Of a stretch of 64,000 bases of DNA, positions 1-45,396 are shown one piece after another. The notes under the pieces are model-generated. The model searched no databases. It was given only the letters and a program-made list of their open reading frames with translations, and was not told where the DNA came from. The stretch's first letter is position 1; each line of letters opens with the position of its first letter. Source of the DNA: Candidatus Velesiimonas alkalicola (GTDB lineage Bacteria; Omnitrophota; Gorgyraeia; Velesiimonadales; Velesiimonadaceae); NCBI GenBank assembly GCA_013626165.1, contig NDHX01000003.1:115-64114 (forward strand), given 5' to 3'. The position numbers and the translations under genes are program-made.

Positions 1-2527
1 ACTACCCCGTCAACCTTCGGTTGACACCCCTTCAAAGAAGGGGAATTCTGACGGGGTGTTTTCAATTCTTTTGAAATACCTGATTTATCATAAGCCAAAA
101 CTTTTTTCATTCTCGGTAAAACCACGCTGTAAAAATGCTCACCCATTTCAACGCCAAGCCATTTTCTGCCAAGTTTATGCGCAACTGCGGTTGTCGTGCC
201 AGAGCCGAGGAAGAAGTCAAGAATTAGGTTTTCTCTTTCTGATGTGCTTTCAATTACCCTCTTTAAGACAATTTCTGCGTTCTCTGTTTGAAAGCCGATA
301 GTAAAAGTATATCCTTGAACATCTGTCCAATTAGTGTCCAAGGGTATCTTTTCTGATTCTAAATATTGTGGAATACCTGTTTTTTCGTTTATTCGTATTC
401 TTTCTTCAGATGCTAATTTGTCAAATTTTTCTTGAGAGAATCGCCAGTGTTGACCGGGAGGACACTTATATTCCTTTCCAAAAATTATAACTGTATTTTT
501 CTCTTTATTCTCTTTGGGAGAAAGACAATTAACCCATTTGATTTCTCTGTTTCTCTCTTTGAAAACTGGCAGAAAATAACTTAATATAGTTTTAGGATAA
601 TAAAACAATGATTCATTTGCTGGATTAAAGTTGTTTAATGGGCCTTGACTATTTGCTTTTCTTAAAATAATCTCTCTAAAATTATTTTTATTGTCTGAAA
701 ATAATTCATCCATCAAACACCTTACAATCCAATTCCCATTGTAGTCGCACCTAACAAAAATACTCCCTTTTTTATTTAAAACATCTTTTGCAATCTTTAA
801 TCTATTTTCAAGCAGTGTTGCCCAGTTGGCGTCTTTATAGTTTGTGCGGTATAAAAACTGGTCAGAAGAAGCTAAATTAAACGGCGGGTCAATGTAAATT
901 GTCTGCACTTTTTCTTTGAATTTCGGCAGGATTGTATTTAACGCCTGATAGTTTTCGGACTTTATCAGCCAGCCGTCTAAAGATTTATCTAAATCGTCAA
1001 ACTGGCTCAAAATTTCAAGTTCTAAATCCTTGAAATATTTTGTGTCTATGGGTAAATGCTTAAATTCCCCTTTTATTAAAAGGGGTGTCTGCGGAGCAGA
1101 CGGGGTATTTTCTTTTATCCAACTTTGTATTTGTTCAATAACCGAATTAATGCTTTTTTTTACATCTATATCTCTAAAATGAAGAACTTTTAATCCTAAA
1201 GATTGCAAATATTTCTCTCGTTCTTCATCACATTCAATTTTAAAATTGTGGCTTTCACCATCTATCTCAATTACTAATCTCAAATTTGGACAATAAAAAT
1301 CAACAATGCAATTACCTATGATTTGTTGACGAGTAAAGTCAAATCTTAATTTTTTATTTTTTAATTCATTCCATAAAAGAACCTCTGATAAATTTCCGGC
1401 CTTTCTTAATTCCCTTGCCCTTTGTTTTAAGTTTTGATTGTATGGTAATTTTAAATACCCCGTCAGTCCTTCGGACCGCCACCCCTTTACAAAAGGGGAA
1501 TTTTCAAAAACATCTTCTATCTTAAAATTTTCATCCACAATGCCAAGTTCCTGCCATTCTTTGATTTGCTCTCTAAAATTTTTATGCTTCAAGATTCTCT
1601 CTAATAAATTCCCCTCTTTTAGAGGGGTGTCTGCGAAAGCAGACGGGGTGTTTGCCTCTTTTAGAGGGGTGTCTGCGAAAGCAGACGGGGTGTTAGTCAG
1701 TTTATCTTTTAAATACTCTAATACTTCTTCCAAATTTTTCTTTACATCTAGATCAGAAATATGAATAACTTTGAGCCCAAGACTTTTTAAGCAATTATCT
1801 CTTTCTTTGTCATATTCTATCTTTCCATCGTGACTTACTCCGTCAATTTCAATAACAACTCCCAAATTCTTACAATAAAAATCAACTATATAATCTCCTA
1901 TAATTTTTTGTCTATCAAAATCTAAACTCAAAAATTTTTTATTTTTAACTTGATCCCAGAATAAAACTTCTGATAAATTGCCGGCTTTTCTTAACTCTTT
2001 TGCTCTTTCTTTTAGGTCAGGATTAAATGGTAATTCCTTCCATTTGACTACCCCGTCAGGCTTCGCCTGCCACCCCTTCGTAGAAGGGGAATTCTTGTAA
2101 ATCCTATCCAGCGTAATCACATAATTTGAGTTTTTGACAAACTTCGGCTTGTTCCAGATATTTACCAGTTCATCTTCAAACTGCGAGATAAAATCAATAA
2201 TTTTGAAAGCGATGCCTTTGAGAATTTGTAGTTGATTGACTCTATCCGCGCCCCACTCTTTGGCTCCTTCCCAAAAATACTGATAACTCCAAAGTTTAAA
2301 TTGCTCCTGCAAGAATGCTTTGGCATTTTTGTTGATAAAGAAATCAACCTCGCTCTGCTTTTCAAAAACTCTAAAAGCGCGTTCTAATTGTTCTTCGGTA
2401 ATTGCTATGCCTTTTCTCTTGATGGCTTTTAAGAGCTCGTCCTGTTTTGTTTTTGCACCTCCTTCTGAATACTGAACGTCAAAAACAATGGTGGCGCCTG
2501 CCCCGTAGGAAGCCGAAGGCTTTCCCA
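1..2527 (-). CDS. Composite DNA methyltransferase, continuation and C-terminal part (partial, runs off window start). Reading 5' to 3' on the minus strand it encodes: an N-terminal extension region, two tandem DUF559 / Vsr-like PD-(D/E)xK domains (~1860-1700 and ~1330-1170), then a beta-class amino-methyltransferase (motif IV IYIDPPFN at ~885, motif I DFFLGSGTT at ~175). No ATG start exists in this frame, so it is best read as joined to the 2429..3130 ORF through a frameshift. Type III Mod-like.
   Basis: Manual minus-strand translation gives one continuous open frame from ~2527 down to nt 1. Recognisable segments include VDFYCPNLRLVIEIDGESHNFKIECDEEREKYLQSLGLKV (DUF559), a second diverged copy (VDFYC...VIEIDGVSHD), QTIYIDPPFNL and LILDFFLGSGTTTAVAHKLGRKWLGVE. 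Five REP-like GC-rich elements are translated in-frame. Confidence 0.6.
6..58. repeat. GC-rich double-hairpin REP-like element (family A), copy in the methyltransferase C-terminal coding region
   Basis: ccccgtcaaccttcggttgacaccccttcaaagaaggggaattctgacggggtg. Nested hairpins GTCAACC/GGTTGAC and CCCCTT/AAGGGG. Confidence 0.7.
1063..1107. repeat. Family A REP-like element (in-frame in CDS)
   Basis: aattccccttttattaaaaggggtgtctgcggagcagacggggta. Encodes ...NTPSAPQTPLLIKGEF... Confidence 0.7.
1456..1503. repeat. Family A REP-like element (in-frame in CDS)
   Basis: taccccgtcagtccttcggaccgccacccctttacaaaaggggaatt. Encodes NSPFVKGWRSEGLTGYLK. Confidence 0.7.
1608..1693. repeat. Family A REP-like element, tandem duplicated (in-frame in CDS)
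   Basis: Two copies of cctcttttagaggggtgtctgcgaaagcagacggggtg. Encodes NTPSAFADTPLKEANTPSAFADTPLKE. Confidence 0.7.
2048..2096. repeat. Family A REP-like element (in-frame in CDS)
   Basis: ctaccccgtcaggcttcgcctgccaccccttcgtagaaggggaattc. Confidence 0.7.
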
Positions 2528-3130
2528 CGGGTCTTCGCGGACTTTGCTTAACTCAAAAACAAGCGAGCGTTTTTCGTTGGCTTTTTTGCTTTCTATCTTT
2601 GAAGCGTCAAAGTAGAACTTTAAATACCCCGTCCCTTCGGGACACCCCTTTTGCAAAGGGGAATTAACACCCCGTCCGCCTTCCCCTTCTACGAAGGGGT
2701 GGCAGGCGAAGCCTGACGGGGTAGTTTCTGACACCCCTCTATCAGAGGGGAATTCAACTGGCAAACTCCTGAAAATCCGGTCGGTTTTAACATAGTAAAG
2801 CATCTGCGTTTTCCAGAAGAGGATAACATCTTTTTCATCGGTATAAACCTTTTCGTAGATATTGTTATGAAATGGCGTTGAATTGAAATAAATTGACCCG
2901 CTTTCCGTAAAATAGCGGCTGAAAAAGGAATAGAGTTTGTCAAAAAGTTCATCTCTAAATTTGGGGTGGCTTTTTAGAGCCGATTCAACATCTTTCTTGA
3001 GGATGTCTTCAATCTTGCGGTAGTAATTTGATTTTATTCTCATCAAATTAACAAAACCGCCAGTGCCTTCAATTTTGGCGCCGATAAATACATCCTGTAG
3101 TGCTTTATAAAATTTTTGTTCTTTGGTCAT
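2429..3130 (-). CDS. N-terminal ORF (233 aa) of the composite methyltransferase. Its last ~35 codons are out of frame relative to the downstream continuation. A -1/+1 frameshift lies inside a GC-rich hairpin at ~2500-2531, so this is a likely pseudogene or a sequencing error in the hairpin.
   Basis: ORF track gives ATG at 3130. The C-terminal tail SLRLPTGQAPPLFLTFSIQKEVQKQNRTSS looks out of frame, while the alternative frame continues as ...ATIVFDVQYSEGGAKTKQDELLKAIKRKGIAITEEQLERAF... An in-frame REP-like cluster at 2625-2756 encodes ...SETTPSGFACHPFVEGEGGRGVNSPLQKGCPEGTGYLK... Confidence 0.55.
   Translation of the reverse strand: MTKEQKFYKALQDVFIGAKIEGTGGFVNLMRIKSNYYRKIEDILKKDVESALKSHPKFRDELFDKLYSFFSRYFTESGSIYFNSTPFHNNIYEKVYTDEKDVILFWKTQMLYYVKTDRIFRSLPVEFPSDRGVSETTPSGFACHPFVEGEGGRGVNSPLQKGCPEGTGYLKFYFDASKIESKKANEKRSLVFELSKVREDPWESLRLPTGQAPPLFLTFSIQKEVQKQNRTSS
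2625..2756. repeat. Cluster of three family A REP-like elements (in-frame in the N-terminal ORF)
   Basis: taccccgtcccttcgggacaccccttttgcaaaggggaatt ... ccccgtccgccttccccttctacgaaggggtggcaggcgaagcctgacggggta ... acacccctctatcagaggggaattc. Confidence 0.7.
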
Positions 3131-3137
3131 AGTTAAA

Positions 3138-3344
3138 TCACTTTAATAAATTATCAACTGAAACATCAAGGGATTTGGCTAATTTTTGAAGCGCACCAAT
3201 TAAGAGATAGATGATACCGTCCAACTCCAGTTTTATCACCGTGTTATAGGAAATATCAGCCAATTTAGAAAGCCGGTCTTGCGACAAGCCCTTTTGTTTC
3301 CTTAACTTTTTTATATTTTTGCCTATTTGTGAAATCTCTCTTGA
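3138..3344 (-). CDS. Small XRE-family helix-turn-helix regulator. It resembles an R-M controller (C-protein) and lies 7 nt upstream of the methyltransferase, co-oriented with it. No canonical start codon is present in the frame.
   Basis: Minus-strand translation ...ISQIGKNIKKLRKQKGLSQDRLSKLADISYNTVIKLELDGIIYLLIGALQKLAKSLDVSVDNLLK*. The stop (TGA) is the reverse complement of 3138-3140. An in-frame TAG lies upstream at 3390-3392 with no ATG/GTG/TTG between, so the start is non-canonical or the gene is degenerate. Confidence 0.5.
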   Translation of the reverse strand, partial: SREISQIGKNIKKLRKQKGLSQDRLSKLADISYNTVIKLELDGIIYLLIGALQKLAKSLDVSVDNLLK

Positions 3345-3568: not shown

Positions 3569-3645
3569 TGGTGGGCGGTAGAGGACTTGAACCTCTGACC
3601 CCTTGCATGTCAAGCAAGTGCTCCAACCAACTGAGCTAACCGCCC
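3569..3645 (-). tRNA. tRNA-Val (anticodon GAC), CCA encoded
   Basis: Reverse complement GGGCGGTTAGCTCAGTTGGTTGGAGCACTTGCTTGACATGCAAGGGGTCAGAGGTTCAAGTCCTCTACCGCCCACCA folds as a cloverleaf. Anticodon loop is CTTGC-TTGACAT-GCAAG. Confidence 0.85.
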
Positions 3646-3681
3646 ATAGCAGTCTAATTTTGCTATAATCTCCGATGTTAA

Positions 3682-3751
3682 ATGACAAATGTCAAAATCC
3701 AAATGTCATTTGAGATTTGTCATTTGTCATTTATTTCCCATTTGTCATTTG
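3682..3751. repeat. Tandem and inverted TGTCATTTG 9-mer repeats (5-6 copies) upstream of tRNA-Val
   Basis: atgacaaatgtcaaaatccaaatgtcatttgagatttgtcatttgtcatttatttcccatttgtcatttg. Confidence 0.6.
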
Positions 3752-3924
3752 AGCTTTAGAATGTGGGCGAGGTGGGAATATGAACCATCGCTGGCGCTCT
3801 TTAAGGGAAAACCAAGTTTTTCCCTTAATGTTCCTTTTCCTTTCAAAACACAGGGGAAAACTTACCTTTTCCCCTGACCCCTTTGGTGGTTCAAATCCCT
3901 TATCATCCTTTTTCTGCTTAAATG

Positions 3925-4007
3925 TGGGCGAGGTGGGATTTGAACCCACACAACTTTACAGTCATTGGATTTTAAGTCCAACGTGTATGCCATTCCACCA
4001 CTCGCCC
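3925..4007 (-). tRNA. tRNA-Leu (anticodon TAA), long variable arm, no encoded CCA
   Basis: Reverse complement GGGCGAGTGGTGGAATGGCATACACGTTGGACTTAAAATCCAATGACTGTAAAGTTGTGTGGGTTCAAATCCCACCTCGCCCA. Anticodon loop is TTGGA-CTTAAAA-TCCAA. Confidence 0.85.
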
Positions 4008-26066: not shown

Positions 26067-26456
26067 TCATTTCATTAGCCTGCTCACCAGCCAGATAACC
26101 ACCACGAGCACCAGTATCACTAATGCCAGCTTGATGATGCCCGGCCCCACCAGCCTGGCTGCTACCAGAATAAACACCAGCAAGATAACAGGCACGATAA
26201 ACCAGCCCCAGAACCTCCCGGATGGTAATTCCCTCATGGAGGTTACTCCCCCGGAGTGATCATATGCCGCCCTCCTGTCAGAATCGGAGAGCACCTCATA
26301 GGCTTCATTAAGCTGCTTCATCTTCTCGGCCGCATCCGGCGAGGTGCTCACATCGGGATGGTACTTTGCTGCCAGTCGGCGATAGGCGGCGACGACCACC
26401 TCTCTGTCTGCCTCGGGATGGACCTGCAGGGTAGCGTAATAGTCAGGCTTTCCCAT
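26067..26456 (-). CDS. J-domain (DnaJ-like) membrane protein, inside the high-GC island
   Basis: 129 aa. DYYATLQVHPEADREVVVAAYRRLAAKYHPD plus a C-terminal TM helix. GC-rich codon usage. Confidence 0.7.
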   Translation of the reverse strand: MGKPDYYATLQVHPEADREVVVAAYRRLAAKYHPDVSTSPDAAEKMKQLNEAYEVLSDSDRRAAYDHSGGVTSMRELPSGRFWGWFIVPVILLVFILVAARLVGPGIIKLALVILVLVVVIWLVSRLMK

Positions 26457-26472
26457 TGCCTAAGTGCGGTTC

Positions 26473-27339
26473 TCATTCCCTGGGCTGCGGACTCACCAGG
26501 AATCTGAAGAGCTCGGAGTTAGATCCCAACACCAGGGTAGTTTCCCCAACAAGGAATTTCTCGTATGCCTCCAGTGTCCTCAGAAAGGCGTAGAACTCAG
26601 GGGCTTGCCCAAAGGCTTCGGCATAGATGCTGGCGGCCCCAGCTTCTCCCTCTCCCCTGAGGATCAGGGCAGCCCTCTCAGCCTCGGCCAGTAGAACCAC
26701 TACCTCTCTATCTGCGCTGGCCCTGATTTTCATGGCCTCCTGTGCCCCTTCAGCACGAGCCTCCTTGGCCATCCGGTCTCGCTCCGCTCTCATCCGGGCA
26801 AAAACAGCCTCTTCTACCCCTTCAGGGAGGTCGGCCCTTCTCATCCGGACGTCTATTACCTCGATACCAAACTCACGGCGAGCAACCTCATCTACATGTC
26901 GGCCTACGGTCTCCATAATCGGCTTCCTCTCGACGCTAATTATGTCCCAGAGGTTGTGTCGAGCAATCTCCTCCCGTAATCTGGAGATAGCAATGCTATT
27001 TAACCTGAGCCTGGCCCCATGTTCATCTCTTACCGACTCGTAAAATCGGAGCGGAACTACAATCCGCCACCGGCTGTAACTATCCACCAGCAGCCTCTCT
27101 TTGTCCAGGGTAATGAACTCCGTCGCCGGGGCATCAGCAAACAATATCCTTCTTTCCATGCGGGATACTGTTTGAATGAAAGGGACTTTGAAGTTTATCC
27201 CTGGTTCCTTGATCGTCCTTATATATTCCCCAAATTGCAGAATGATCGCCTGCTCAGCCTCGTCTATCGTAAATATGGTCTGACCTAACATGAACATGGC
27301 CGCCACTACGATTATTACGGTTATCATTAATTTTCTCAT
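26473..27339 (-). CDS. hflC: HflC (SPFH/band-7 protease modulator), inside the high-GC island
   Basis: 288 aa SPFH domain. GC-rich. Confidence 0.8.
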   Translation of the reverse strand: MRKLMITVIIVVAAMFMLGQTIFTIDEAEQAIILQFGEYIRTIKEPGINFKVPFIQTVSRMERRILFADAPATEFITLDKERLLVDSYSRWRIVVPLRFYESVRDEHGARLRLNSIAISRLREEIARHNLWDIISVERKPIMETVGRHVDEVARREFGIEVIDVRMRRADLPEGVEEAVFARMRAERDRMAKEARAEGAQEAMKIRASADREVVVLLAEAERAALILRGEGEAGAASIYAEAFGQAPEFYAFLRTLEAYEKFLVGETTLVLGSNSELFRFLVSPQPRE

Positions 27340-28370
27340 TGTTCACCCCCCAGGTCCCTCAGTGGCAGAAACGGCATCAGGTTGCCGCCGACTGCGGGAT
27401 CGATAATGATTTTCTCGGTTCCGGCAAGAACCCGTTCTATCGTCTCCAGGTATAGCCTCTGTCGGGTCACTGCCGGTGCCATCTGGTACTCCGCAAGAAT
27501 TTTGAGAAACCGCGCTGTATCACCCTCAGCCAGCGCTATCCTTTCGTCCCTAAAGGCAGTGGCGGCGTGTGTTTTCGCTGCCGCCTCTCCCCTGGCTCGG
27601 GGAACTATATCCCGGGCGTACCCTTCAGCCTCTCTCTGAAGCCTTTCCCTATCTGCCTTAGCCCGGACCACATCGTAGAAGGCTTCCCTGACTTCTTCTG
27701 GCGGGTCCACTACCTGTAGTTCCACTCTAATTACATGCAGTCCCGTCAGATGAGCATCCAGCAGAGACTGCAGAAACTCCCAGGTTCCTGCTTCTACATC
27801 AGGGCGACCCACGGTCATCGCATGATCAATATCCATGTTCCCGATAACACTGCGCAGGGCGACCTCAGTATTTACGCGCAGAGCCTCCTCGGGACCTTCA
27901 GTCCGGAATAGATAGGTAGGTGCATCCTTCACCTGATAAAGCACCAAAACCTGGACATCAGCGATATTCCTATCCCCGGTGAGCATCAGCGATTCCAATG
28001 GCATTCGCGCGTGTCTCGGCGGTCTCCCCGGCCTCTCTACCGTCCGAAAGCCGATCTCGGCCCTCCTTACCGCAAGCACATTCACCACATTATGGCTCTG
28101 AATTGGCCAGGGCAGGCGATATTTCAACCCGGGGTCAGTTTGGGATACAAATTTCCCGAATTGCCTCACCACCCCCACTTCGGCGGGCCCAACCGTGTAG
28201 ATTCCACTTGCCAGCCAGATTGCCACCACAACCCCTATTACGAGCCATATTATTGGCCCTATCTTCACCGGCTTGCCCTTCTTCTCACCACCCATCCACC
28301 CGACTATCTCCTGCCAGATATCCTCCCATGGCATCTGGCTTCCTGCTCCTCCTCCTAATCCTCCGTTCAC
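27336..28370 (-). CDS. hflK: HflK (SPFH/band-7 protease modulator), inside the high-GC island
   Basis: 344 aa. VGPAEVGVVRQFGKF... Overlaps the hflC start. GC-rich. Confidence 0.8.
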   Translation of the reverse strand: MNGGLGGGAGSQMPWEDIWQEIVGWMGGEKKGKPVKIGPIIWLVIGVVVAIWLASGIYTVGPAEVGVVRQFGKFVSQTDPGLKYRLPWPIQSHNVVNVLAVRRAEIGFRTVERPGRPPRHARMPLESLMLTGDRNIADVQVLVLYQVKDAPTYLFRTEGPEEALRVNTEVALRSVIGNMDIDHAMTVGRPDVEAGTWEFLQSLLDAHLTGLHVIRVELQVVDPPEEVREAFYDVVRAKADRERLQREAEGYARDIVPRARGEAAAKTHAATAFRDERIALAEGDTARFLKILAEYQMAPAVTRQRLYLETIERVLAGTEKIIIDPAVGGNLMPFLPLRDLGGEQ

Positions 28371-28687
28371 TTCTACGCCTCCTTTCTTTTTTCTACTCGT
28401 TTTACTCGTCCGGGTTCCGTTCCCGGAGAGACTTGATTTTACACTTCATATAATACAGTTAATGTGTTTATTTAACCAAACCTAAACCCTTTGCCTGCTC
28501 GCCAAAACCCGAAAAGCAACGAAGGGAACTAAGCCAACCGCTTCTGTTTTGCTCCGGCGGCAACGCTTCCGACATATTTACTCTGTTCTCCACAACGAGA
28601 AAAACATAAACCCTGATTGATTGGGAATTTCCTCTAAATTATTTTCAATTGGTCTTGTTTTTAAGTTAATTTTCCCATACAATTTTA

Positions 28688-29533
28688 TTACTTATACCTT
28701 TGCCATTTTACTTTTGTAGTAGAATTAGAATTTTCAACTTTACTATCAGGTTTTTTTGCTAAAATTAAATATTTAAATCCTCGCAAAAAGAAATTAAATT
28801 TTTGGGCCCGATAATGCCAAATTCTAGTATTTGAGCTTTGATTTTTTCTTGTAACACATATTAAATCTACGGGCTCAAATTTTATATTATCAATTAACAT
28901 TTGATAAATTTTTAATCCAACAGGAGTAAATTTTTTCTTTACCCATTGGTCACCAATAAGCCACCCTATTACCTTACCGGGTTTCAAAATTCTGTAAATC
29001 TCCCCGGCAACCTTTTCTAATTCCTCGAAAAATTTTGGACCCTCGGCAGAAATTTTACCAATATCTGCAAGCTCGTTAGAATAATTAACGTTATCGCCAT
29101 AAGGGGAATCTATAAAAACCATATCTACCGAATTATCTTTAAGTGGAATTTTCCGCGAATCATTTTTTACAACTTTGGGGTGCTGCGGGTTTATATCATA
29201 GCCGATTACTTTTCTTCCTTCCTCCTCACAGACATCAATCGTTGTTCCGCTCCCGCACATTGGATCAACTACCAAATCGTCCGGCCTCGTGTATCTTTGT
29301 AGCATATTCCAAATGATAAAAGCAGGTGTAACGCCCTGAAACTTATTATTGCCTTTTGGTTTTTTGCCGTAGCTTTGCCTTGAAAAATCCCAAAGGGTGG
29401 TCGTCTCAAAAGGTGGTTTTTCTTCTTCTATTTTCTTCTTTTTTATTTCTCTCTCGTTCGAACTTTCATTCAGTTTTTGAGATTTTATCTCACCAATTTT
29501 TGTATTCTGTTTTACGGCTATTGTGTTTTGCAT
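28688..29533 (-). CDS. Small orphan N6-adenine/N4-cytosine methyltransferase (motif I DPMCGSGTT, then motif IV IDSPYG)
   Basis: 281 aa. VTPAFIIWNMLQRYTRPDDLVVDPMCGSGTT resembles the PF01555 AdoMet region. DSPY lies ~55 aa downstream. No adjacent restriction gene. An RNA methyltransferase of the RsmD type is not fully excluded. Confidence 0.6.
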   Translation of the reverse strand: MQNTIAVKQNTKIGEIKSQKLNESSNEREIKKKKIEEEKPPFETTTLWDFSRQSYGKKPKGNNKFQGVTPAFIIWNMLQRYTRPDDLVVDPMCGSGTTIDVCEEEGRKVIGYDINPQHPKVVKNDSRKIPLKDNSVDMVFIDSPYGDNVNYSNELADIGKISAEGPKFFEELEKVAGEIYRILKPGKVIGWLIGDQWVKKKFTPVGLKIYQMLIDNIKFEPVDLICVTRKNQSSNTRIWHYRAQKFNFFLRGFKYLILAKKPDSKVENSNSTTKVKWQRYK

Positions 29534-29827: not shown

Positions 29828-30178
29828 TGGTGGAGGTGGCGGGAATCGAACCCGCGTCCTGAAAACCCTGGCCAAGGTATCTACATCCGTGTCTATTCTA
29901 TTGTCTTTCGCAGTACAAAACACCGAACAGCAGGTTTCTTATACCACTATGGCTTATTGTTCTTGTTCACAGGTTCAAGCCCGAAACCTGCGAACCAGCC
30001 TGCAAACCGACATCCTTTCAAATCTTACAGGCAGAGATTTGAAGGATGTGACTGCTTAAGCAGCCAATGCTAAGTGTTCGTTAGCGTTTGTTTTTTGTCA
30101 GGTTTTCAACGAGGCCACCTGACAACCTCGGGATGCAACCTTCACCAGCAATTTTTCAGTCGAGCCCTATTCACCCCC
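29828..30178 (-). ncRNA. ssrA: tmRNA (ssrA), tag peptide ANEHLALAA
   Basis: 5' end GGGGGTGAATAGGGCTCGAC. 3' end GGACGCGGGTTCGATTCCCGCCACCTCCACCA. Internal reading frame GCT AAC GAA CAC TTA GCA TTG GCT GCT TAA. ~351 nt. smpB adjacent. Confidence 0.85.
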
Positions 30179-35423: not shown

Positions 35424-35524
35424 CATTCCCCTTTGAGTAAAGGGGTGTCCCGACTTTGTCGGGACAGGGTATTTCCCTTTTGTAGGGTTGTGTCTTGTGA
35501 ATACCCCGTCAGGCTTCGCTCGCC
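35424..35524. repeat. Intergenic cluster of family A REP-like elements (between the TPR gene and ilvE)
   Basis: cattcccctttgagtaaaggggtgtcccgactttgtcgggacagggta ... ataccccgtcaggcttcgctcgcc. The ORF-track 69-aa ORF 35423..35632 is just its translation. Confidence 0.7.
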
Positions 35525-35610
35525 TTCCTCTTCATATTCAAGCCTCTTCGGTCTTATGGAAGGGAAATAAGCGGACAGAAACGCACAAATAGTATACCAT
35601 ATTAGGCTTT

Positions 35611-44768: not shown

Positions 44769-44810
44769 AATTCCCCTCTTATAAGGGGGTGTCCTAAAAG
44801 GGACGGGGTG
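44769..44810. repeat. Intergenic family A REP-like element (between korD and the NTase-fold gene)
   Basis: aattcccctcttataagggggtgtcctaaaagggacggggtg. Confidence 0.7.
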
Positions 44811-44811
44811 T

Positions 44812-45396
44812 TTAAGAGTGTTGCAGCATTTTTAATTTTCTAAACCGTTTATCTTTATGCACAATTTTTGAAAGATTTAATGCCTTCTCCTTTTCCTTTT
44901 GCCCCATCACTGAAAGTAAATTCAAGATATCGTATTCATCTTTTAAGCCCCCGGCTTGAAGCTTCATTGCCACAAGATATGGCTTTGAAAAACAAGGAAA
45001 AGCAAGCCCTAAATCCTCTGCATTTTCAAGAGCTTCTATTTCCCATCCATAATGTGCAAATAAAATATCTATTGTCGGACACTCGCCCTCAATATGAGCA
45101 ATCCGTATAAGTGAATGTTTAAGGGGGTCTGAAATATTTGTAAAAGGTTTGTATTCAACATTAAAATCTAAAAGTTTTTGCTTCAAAAAAATAAAAAGGT
45201 TTTCAGGGTCAATCTCTTTCTGATTCTTATCAGTTATAACTACACATAAATCAACATCCATTGTTGTTCTCGGCACACCCTGCGAAATGATCGCCTGCCC
45301 ACCGATTAAAGCAGCCTTAATGTTGCAATTTTTTAATCTGCTAAACTTCTCTAAATTTTTTTTGACCAATCTTAAGGTACTCTTGATAGACTTCAT
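44812..45396 (-). CDS. Nucleotidyltransferase-fold protein (minimal NTase motif GGQAIISQGVPRTTMDVDL); start uncertain
   Basis: 194 aa. Overlaps the upstream small ORF by 56 nt. Confidence 0.45.
   Translation of the reverse strand: MKSIKSTLRLVKKNLEKFSRLKNCNIKAALIGGQAIISQGVPRTTMDVDLCVVITDKNQKEIDPENLFIFLKQKLLDFNVEYKPFTNISDPLKHSLIRIAHIEGECPTIDILFAHYGWEIEALENAEDLGLAFPCFSKPYLVAMKLQAGGLKDEYDILNLLSVMGQKEKEKALNLSKIVHKDKRFRKLKMLQHS

Follow-up and report, generated by a model that had tools for sequence, protein, structure and literature searches.

A double-hairpin repeat bracketing DUF559 nuclease segments in frame within a DNA methylase gene of Candidatus Velesiimonas alkalicola

The stretch of DNA analysed here, called the window in what follows, comprises 64,000 nt of contig NDHX01000003.1 (positions 115 to 64,114, forward strand) from Candidatus Velesiimonas alkalicola, a member of the Omnitrophota. 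It raises a simple question: why should a short GC-rich repeat accumulate in one gene, that of a Mod-type N6/N4 DNA methyltransferase at the left end of the window? A first-pass annotation made from the sequence had likened this repeat to the Rickettsia palindromic elements (RPE). The RPE-like behaviour is confirmed, as the copies lie in frame and are dispersed, but the notion of independent insertions that merely flank DUF559 segments is not. The copies are the oriented termini of cassettes centred on a DUF559 domain, which explains why nine of the eleven window copies lie in one gene. By analogy with the REP-associated tyrosine transposases (RAYT) and their repetitive extragenic palindromic (REP) sequences, the window probably carries two copies of a composite selfish element in frame in the methylase gene, together with solo and clustered derivatives of its ends.

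The copies were located with a covariance model (R1) built from 38 element copies, the window being searched with the filters off (E<1e-3). Nine were found in the methylase gene, where at least eight had been announced: 1-47(-), 1063-1109(+), 1454-1502(-), 1607-1652(+), 1653-1694(+), 2047-2093(-), 2623-2665(-), 2681-2725(+) and 2723-2754(-). Two others lie elsewhere in the window, at 35424-35473(+) and 44769-44812(+), and these intergenic copies, together with matches in more than 15 phyla (see below), substantiate the earlier view of a dispersed family. In the window, the pattern CCCCTT-N3-8-AAGGGG is observed 7 times (0.00 expected) and ACCCCGTC 13 times (0.45 expected). The element is a double hairpin of ~45 nt with the consensus AATT-CCCCTYY-loop-RRAGGGG-TG-(second hairpin)-C-GGGGTRK-T, the second hairpin being variable in sequence. 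Its copies average 53% GC, and the GC content of the window is 37.8% rather than the ~34% initially given for the genome. The nested hairpins proposed in the first-pass annotation are real features of the family: both fold in structure predictions made on the copies, and both are supported by covariation. In the element alignment 90.8% of the cells are paired, versus 52-59% when the partners are slid, and helix 2, which the search pattern leaves unconstrained, displays compensatory changes at 5/7 pairs. No Rfam family was found for the element, either at the gathering threshold over the whole window or at E<=1 over positions 1-3200.

The product of the methylase gene contains one N6_N4_Mtase domain and two DUF559 domains according to Pfam. 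Once all putative inserts are removed, 660 aa remain, which align to Mod methylases over 100% of the length with 70-79% identity. The aligned relatives are hundreds of ~780-820-aa proteins named 'adenine-specific DNA methylase Mod' with PF01555 only; DUF559 is also present in about one in ten of the closest methylase relatives, and the majority of the orthologues have empty sites. This full-length match implies that both the element copies and the cassettes are insertions. The comparison with insert-free orthologues that had been suggested thus gives a clear answer, the copies being, on the evidence of these alignments, true insertions relative to the empty sites. The junctions were mapped by protein and DNA alignment to the empty orthologues, and the following features can be recognized.

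1-3130, minus strand: Mod-type N6/N4 DNA methyltransferase gene, with its ATG at 3130, running past the left window edge and interrupted by inserts (translation and Pfam PF01555).
1607-2093, minus strand: cassette 1, inserted after 'ITLDRI', with the upstream copy at 2047-2093, DUF559 at 1704-2033 and two downstream inverted copies at 1653-1694 and 1607-1652; lineage A.
1063-1502, minus strand: cassette 2, inserted after 'IEDVFE', with the upstream copy at 1454-1502, DUF559 at 1116-1448 and the downstream inverted copy at 1063-1109; lineage B.
2623-2754, minus strand: site A, where three element copies (2723-2754, 2681-2725, 2623-2665) cluster without a nuclease, after 'SLPVEF', adding 40 aa.
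2499-2530, minus strand: hairpin-only insert of 32 nt after 'KVRED', delimited by DNA alignment to the empty orthologue L001.
1-60, minus strand: element copy (1-47) and partial copy (26-60) after 'SGISKELK', at the window edge.

Each cassette therefore consists of a DUF559 coding segment of ~330 nt bracketed by inverted ~45-nt copies of the element. In the orientation of the gene, a copy on the same strand lies directly upstream of DUF559, and one or two inverted copies lie directly downstream. This geometry is kept in 10 of the 11 cassettes examined first, namely the two of the window and those of L002, Bacteroidales, Oscillospiraceae, Flavobacteriaceae (the complete genome of Daejeonia), Melioribacteraceae, Cloacimonadales and other loci. 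The association was then measured from the side of the nuclease, on metagenome contigs queried with an alignment of the DUF559 core from which the flank peptides were excluded; the 80 loci obtained were searched with R1. The element is present in 72 of them. A same-strand copy occurs within 200 nt upstream of DUF559 at 57/80 loci (median gap 31 nt), an inverted copy within 200 nt downstream at 55/79 (median gap 24 nt), and both together at 46/79; no more than 4 and 6 loci had copies in the wrong orientation alone. The element density reaches 4.4/kb in the 250-nt flanks of DUF559 and falls to 0.145/kb in the remainder of the loci, a difference of about 30-fold. As a control, 80 distant DUF559 loci from viral contigs were searched and none had the element (0/80); a flanking inverted repeat of whatever kind was found in 0/73 of such loci. 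Many free-standing cassettes have an ATG separated by 3-6 nt from the G-rich end of the element copy that precedes it. The window cassettes have no start codon of their own, so that they can be expressed only as part of the methylase.

The DUF559 domain is predicted from its sequence to be a Vsr-fold PD-(D/E)XK nuclease. The PF04480 match to the methylase product is beyond doubt (E=2.1e-55, 185.7 bits for a cut-off of 20.6, two domains). Residues D50, E61, D63 and H67 are invariant in 36 diverse DUF559 cores and are kept in both window copies, where they belong to the catalytic-type motif IVDF...EIDGxSH..K. The only solved relative detected by sequence is 3HRL, an uncharacterised 'endonuclease-like protein' of Neisseria. 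Introns and 'fractured genes' are known hosts of homing endonucleases with the Vsr fold (PMC2677866, PMC3384342).

The insertions in the methylase gene are polymorphic. Among 69 orthologues, at least nine distinct in-frame element sites and two DUF559 sites can be distinguished; a solo copy occupies the 'SGISKELK' site in many orthologues and the position of site A in P0121, P0202 and others. Site 5, which holds a full cassette in the window, holds a back-to-back element pair in L002. Between the two window cassettes the identity is 59% for the protein and 67.5% for the DNA, which indicates that they were acquired separately and not through an internal duplication; internal tandem duplication was accordingly rejected as the source of the cassettes. 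The first-pass annotation would have abandoned its claim of mobility had the copies been confined to this gene and explained in that manner, and neither is the case. The sole simple tandem duplication among the copies of the gene is a 42-nt unit at 1607-1691. Moreover, insertion site is no guide to cassette lineage, and lineages exchange sites among orthologues. Lineage A occupies site 5 in the window (cassette 1) and site 10 in P0121 (77% identity); lineage B occupies site 10 in the window (cassette 2) and in P0127, and site 5 in P0125 (75% identity). At 4/5 junctions the hairpin-1 end abuts a pre-existing (G)AAT.

Translation of the inserts in the host frame, as well as the peptides quoted in the first-pass annotation, proved correct, the gene being read on the minus strand. 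The single frameshift of the gene, which had been said to coincide with a degenerate copy at 2501-2531, is caused by the 32-nt insert at 2499-2530. A perfect-palindrome stem would measure 33 nt and remain in frame; one base is therefore missing, which could be due either to a recent mutation or to an assembly error. Whichever of the six frames is considered, 67-88% of the element copies contain no stop codon, because the element is GC-rich, and copy lengths show no bias toward multiples of three. In view of these two properties, selection acting once the copies had inserted is the best explanation for the preserved frame. The complete orthologue P0121 was modelled with AlphaFold2: all element-encoded peptides are 81-100% coil and lie between secondary-structure elements, and the DUF559 core forms a confident separate domain (predicted local distance difference test, pLDDT, 77-92). 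This model is weak overall (pLDDT 63, predicted template modelling score 0.33) and was used only for such local assignments of coil and domain.

Other GC-rich peptides, apparently repeat-derived (PAFAEASAGRDG, SACHSERSE, NPSSSLETS), were observed at element positions (sites 2, 5 and 22 of the orthologue alignment); the presence of several unrelated repeat peptides at shared sites points to permissive loops and not to target specificity. In P0011 and P0012, the DUF559 domain is itself interrupted, in frame, by an element-derived peptide, RIPRPSGTPLLEKGE, placed between EIDGESHDFKG and EYDEK. At L061 (4813-5147), two element copies enclose part of a different host gene, which means that genes besides the Mod methylase have also been invaded; the enclosed segment resembles the C-terminal region of a type IIG/Eco57I-like enzyme. 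Finally, the 253-aa protein P0001 combines HTH_3, a 37-aa N-terminal fragment of the methylase and a complete cassette 77% identical to window cassette 2, and appears to be the product of a recombination or deletion between element copies.

A complementary picture is obtained from the side of the repeat. A pattern scan returned 160 matches at 120 loci in more than 15 phyla. Although ~17 specified bases over 596 Gb could give a few hundred matches by chance, such an origin was rejected, since most matches carry the second hairpin, unspecified in the pattern, and the GGGGT block; the second hairpin together with CGGGGT was counted in ~85% of the 160 matches by visual inspection and in 82/160 by an automated energy filter. 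The element pairs comprise 28 convergent (tags inward), 18 divergent and 27 tandem arrangements. The convergent pairs are bimodal, 20 having spacers of 17-107 nt and 4 having spacers of 429-540 nt. DUF559 lies inside all four long-spacer pairs, and no transposase or other enzyme gene was found bracketed by convergent pairs. The copies located outside the methylase gene in the window are the following.

35424-35570, plus strand: intergenic convergent pair, an intact copy (35424-35473, plus) facing a degenerate inverted copy (~35503-35570), that is, an 'empty' head-to-head dimer.
44769-44812, plus strand: solo intergenic copy abutting the stop codon of an open reading frame (ORF) at 44812-45396, minus strand.

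The pair at 35424-35570 fits the short-spacer class of convergent pairs, that of the 'empty dimers'.

The 3' G/T block of the element (GGGGTRK) provides a further clue, since it varies together with the purine arm of hairpin 1, as its mirror image. The main combinations are given below.

Purine arm GGA-GGGG with third block GGGG-TGG: 158 copies.
Purine arm GAA-GGGG with third block GGGG-TAG: 32 copies.
Purine arm AGA-GGGG with third block GGGG-TGT: 22 copies.
Purine arm AAA-GGGG with third block GGGG-TAT: 4 copies.

All four haplotypes obey the mirror rule, defined as G with G, and A with A or T, at both variable positions. The rule is kept in 136/184 copies (shuffled mean 75.5, maximum 92) and, in a second set gathered independently, in 96/143 copies (shuffled mean 68.3, maximum 78). 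A mirror repeat cannot arise from Watson-Crick pairing. The pattern is consistent with a purine-motif intrastrand triplex, short of proof, and shared descent may contribute to it, given the four main haplotypes. A triplex of this type has been described for the BoxC/PIT/TMECO repeats (PMC4666352).

The pairing of DUF559 with structured repeats extends to more distant nucleases. Among eight distant cellular DUF559 genes (36-41% identical), six are flanked by significant repeats made from their own C-run/G-run palindromes. The DUF559 gene of S. meliloti is flanked by a 114-nt inverted repeat with 96% complementarity, composed of TMECO-type units; that of N. gonorrhoeae has repeat units of ~100 nt on both sides; in Pseudanabaena a DUF559 domain is found within a 1621-aa protein with flanking palindrome repeats; the Sphingobium flank shows a double hairpin with a mirrored block, and the Deinococcus and Picosynechococcus genes have flanking palindromic repeats of their own. 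The single DUF559 gene of E. coli K-12, ycjD, runs at its stop codon into a degenerate palindrome, and a perfect TMECO follows 168 nt downstream of the gene. By our own estimate, this adjacency has a chance of ~0.3% (23 TMECOs in 4.6 Mb, PMC4666352). Between the degenerate palindrome and the TMECO, the ycjD-fabI spacer (L296 985-1245; L297 2540-2908) contains 39 nt duplicated from the 3' end of ycjD, which look like the scar of a past rearrangement. As a tentative generalization, which we regard as possible but no better than that, DUF559 nucleases would be the dedicated partners of a superfamily of structured GC-rich repeats (BoxC/PIT/TMECO, CGTC-type REPs, some RPE-like repeats and the present element), each clade recognizing a non-B structure, hairpin or intrastrand triplex, of its own family and driving its spread and local rearrangements. 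Another methylase-family host may be DUF1156: in L290 (28-1718), a plasmid of Synechocystis sp. B12, the DUF559 gene stands between a 175-aa ORF of the DUF1156 methylase family and a downstream ORF, and in Picosynechococcus DUF559 lies directly upstream of a full-length DUF1156 gene.

How could such a composite element work? In the reading that we favor, the nuclease would act on the repeats and drive their spread. It would recognize and cut a folded or sequence-specific motif, and the break would be repaired by copying from a filled copy, the flanking motifs serving as homology; in this way, empty dimers would acquire the cassette, which would also be reshuffled from site to site. Insertions would occur at many places. 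In coding DNA, the survivors would be those that keep the frame, contain no stop and fall in surface loops or linkers, and translation would turn them into additional peptides or an additional nuclease domain of the host protein. Solo motifs and head-to-head dimers would be the non-autonomous forms, as REPINs are to RAYT genes or miniature inverted-repeat transposable elements (MITEs) to transposons.

Several observations weigh against this scheme. At the loci ascertained through the element, DUF559 was found in only 8 of 120, within the 8 kb fetched, and most element copies must consequently spread or persist away from the nuclease gene. The viral and plasmid collections yielded only distant DUF559 relatives (at most 43% identity), and no vector between phyla was found there. 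No clean target-site duplication was present at the five junctions examined. The Propionibacteriaceae locus L112 is a partial exception to the orientation rule, and a second DUF559 clade (P0131, P0163, P0179; L207 2426-2510), inserted at a shared methylase site, is accompanied by a different palindrome, TCCCCCCTTTGT/ACAAAGGGGGGA, on the downstream side only. The nuclease of the window cassettes, given the lack of a start codon, may be inactive or act only as a fusion, and the frameshifted window methylase may be a pseudogene in which inserts accumulate freely. No biochemistry of the cassette DUF559 clade was found in the literature, and a lone PD-(D/E)XK nuclease is not known to serve as a transposase.

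The most serious competitor, still an unlikely one in our judgment, is an independent REP- or RPE-like repeat mobilized by some host or trans-acting factor, with DUF559 genes merely attracting or retaining copies through permissive flanks or through the use of the G-rich motif as a ribosome-binding site or terminator. Such a repeat would readily account for the large share of copies located away from DUF559 and for the solo copies at many sites, and in free-standing cassettes the G-rich 3' end of the upstream copy stands 3-6 nt ahead of an ATG, in the position expected of a Shine-Dalgarno sequence; CGTC REPs, moreover, are reported without a dedicated enzyme (PMC3733652). What it does not predict is a strict orientation on two sides, a 30-fold local enrichment and bimodal spacers filled only by DUF559, nor different families of flanking palindromes for different DUF559 clades. 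In-frame cassettes within genes need neither a ribosome-binding site nor a terminator, yet both flanks are kept. It could be supposed instead that the inverted repeats drive a programmed inversion of the DUF559 segment and a phase-variable switching of the methylase. Stop codons on the reverse strand of the cassette would turn the methylase off upon inversion, and DUF559 is enriched among predicted inversion targets (PMC9881135). This seems improbable to us: the arms are imperfect and only ~45 nt long, the same bracket surrounds free-standing DUF559 genes outside any host gene, solo copies and empty dimers are left unexplained, and no invertase gene was seen near the methylase among the window ORFs, not all of which were systematically annotated.

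Two further explanations do without a mobile repeat of this kind, and we give very little credit to either. The DUF559 segments could be homing-endonuclease elements of self-splicing inteins or introns, a class in which Vsr-like enzymes exist, within introns and beside split inteins (PMC2677866, PMC3384342), and which would fit the in-frame position in a host gene. The insert, however, consists only of a nuclease fold of ~110 aa and the repeats; the protein contains no Pfam intein or Hint domain, no Rfam intron or other RNA family was detected even at E<=1, and an equivalent cassette exists in free-standing form with its own ATG. Least credible of all is the idea that the peptides are conserved linkers or motifs of a multidomain methylase-nuclease and not repeats at the DNA level, even if identical peptides do recur in many proteins and the DUF559 domains remain whole. 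Translated copies appear in several frames and in both orientations (NSP.., FPS.., TP..), others lie between genes, the base pairing of the element is conserved with compensatory changes, the inserts are wholly missing from most orthologues, and stop-free copies (67-88% in every frame) are expected from GC-rich composition alone.

The surroundings of the methylase gene were also inspected, and one further feature adjoins it.

3138-3287, minus strand: truncated HTH_3 ORF upstream of the methylase, whose counterpart in the orthologous locus L002 (9775-9987) is an intact 70-aa HTH_3 gene.

Downstream of the HTH_3/methylase region, L002 contains SIR2_2, DUF87, ThsB_TIR and ResIII/YagJ genes, neighbors that place the methylase in a defence island; the Mod methylase host gene is itself horizontally mobile. 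In the window, genes for tRNA-Val and tRNA-Leu (3569-4007) adjoin the methylase, and three other assemblies of the same organism (L204-L206) stop there, which suggests a variable or repeat-rich island boundary. A 233-aa ORF at the left window edge is not on record. Further away, the region 26400-28400 has 52-55% GC and contains two adjoining SPFH/Band_7 genes on the minus strand (26473-27339 and 27336-28370); in a genome of 38% GC, this composition may reflect horizontal acquisition. A second, small N6_N4 DNA methylase gene adjoins the tmRNA gene, with tag ANEHLALAA (28688-29533 and 29828-30178).

Short structured repeats such as REP, RPE and BoxC/TMECO are abundant in bacteria, and for several of these families we know of neither a function nor a mobilizing enzyme. 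A reproducible, oriented association between DUF559 and such repeats across phyla supplies a concrete candidate partner, directly testable by biochemistry, in a family of unknown function that includes E. coli YcjD and the uncharacterised 3HRL; the pairing may reveal the way in which a widespread class of bacterial repeats is propagated. It also provides a case of whole folded domains and short peptides joining proteins by way of mobile DNA and without splicing. For annotators, a word of caution follows, as many 'endonuclease domain-containing proteins' and length variants of methylases stem from such insertions. Should DUF559 nucleases truly be the partners of these repeats, this would explain the instability of TMECO loci, the scoring of DUF559 genes as inversion targets and the fact that CGTC REPs 'lack a transposase', and it would define a new class of mobile element able to live as a translated domain in host proteins.

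How does this element compare with the systems already described? With the Rickettsia RPEs it shares a behavior, being a dispersed palindromic repeat found in frame in ORFs and translated; the likeness is one of behavior and does not by itself imply homology. Inverted termini are present, as in insertion sequence (IS) and MITE-type transposons, and no clean target-site duplication was seen at the five junctions, four of which have the hairpin-1 end next to a pre-existing (G)AAT. The Vsr-like homing endonucleases (I-Bth0305I and the 'fractured gene' family; PMC2677866, PMC3384342) show, at the level of the superfamily, the same kind of nuclease as a selfish mobile gene, but they reside in group I introns or between split-intein halves and no terminal repeats are reported for them. 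ShiLan, a non-splicing nuclease-bearing insertion in a phage DNA methylase (Arsenault et al. 2025, PMC11855218), is similar in several respects: a homing-type nuclease in a methylase gene, an open host frame, no detectable intein or intron, and a predicted looping out of the host fold. It differs in being an HNH nuclease read out of frame, in a phage and without structured terminal repeats, whereas DUF559 is here in the host frame of a cellular gene. In the data of Milman et al. (PMC9881135), DUF559 proteins belong to the products with the strongest enrichment among predicted inversion targets (odds ratio 14), a result that flanking inverted repeats would give by themselves. No published link between DUF559 or ycjD and such repeats was found in the accessible literature, most subscription journals lying outside this search.

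Closer relations are found among the structured repeats. TMECO is always intergenic in K-12, has no known function, is not associated with mobile elements and is linked to rearrangements, its loci being hot spots for them (Holder et al. 2015, PMC4666352). The present element shares with BoxC/PIT/TMECO the block order (pyrimidine, purine, mirrored G/T block, with mirror covariation), a high GC content, strong conservation, a wide distribution and an occurrence as inverted pairs. It differs from BoxC/TMECO, with their 9-nt blocks and 3-nt second loop, by blocks of 7 nt and a second loop that is a hairpin of 12-30 nt, and from TMECO in that copies also lie inside ORFs. According to Di Nocera et al. 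(2013, PMC3733652), the CGTC-tagged REPs, with RPE-4 and RPE-6 among their members, are found inside genes, form dimers of the head-to-head type and 'apparently lack a dedicated transposase'. Head-to-head dimers (the most frequent of the pair arrangements counted above), intragenic in-frame units and the lack of an associated transposase are found here as well, and hairpin 2, read on the reverse strand, corresponds to CGTC, stem, loop, stem and (G)CCA, exactly so in the Chryseobacterium copies and only in part in those of the window. These copies also have the CGTC-REP stem that starts with A/T pairs, measures 8-9 bp and carries a loop of 4-5 nt, a combination not found in the window, where the stems measure 5-7 bp (8 bp at 35424) and the loops 3-4 nt. 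The CGTC tag is present in all window copies (ACCCCGTC), but its GTC often pairs with GAC, whereas the tag of the CGTC REPs is unpaired; many copies outside the window have CGCC or CGGC instead. The tail, CCA in the CGTC REPs, is (G)CCA in copies of the GCAGGC..GCCTGAC type and ACA in those of the GTCTGC..GCAGAC type, and a further conserved hairpin and the G/T block set the present element apart from the CGTC REPs.

A parallel for the arrangement as a whole is offered by the REPtrons, in which a lone small nuclease gene, that of the RAYT, likewise lies between inverted copies of a short palindromic repeat. As in REPtrons and REPINs, the repeat is also dispersed as singlets and head-to-head dimers, and, as in REPtrons, the enzyme clade and the repeat family co-vary. 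The enzyme, in contrast, is here a DUF559 protein with the Vsr-type PD-(D/E)XK fold instead of an HUH/Y1 transposase, the repeat possesses a triplex-type third block, and the cassettes are also found in frame inside genes, where they are translated with their host.

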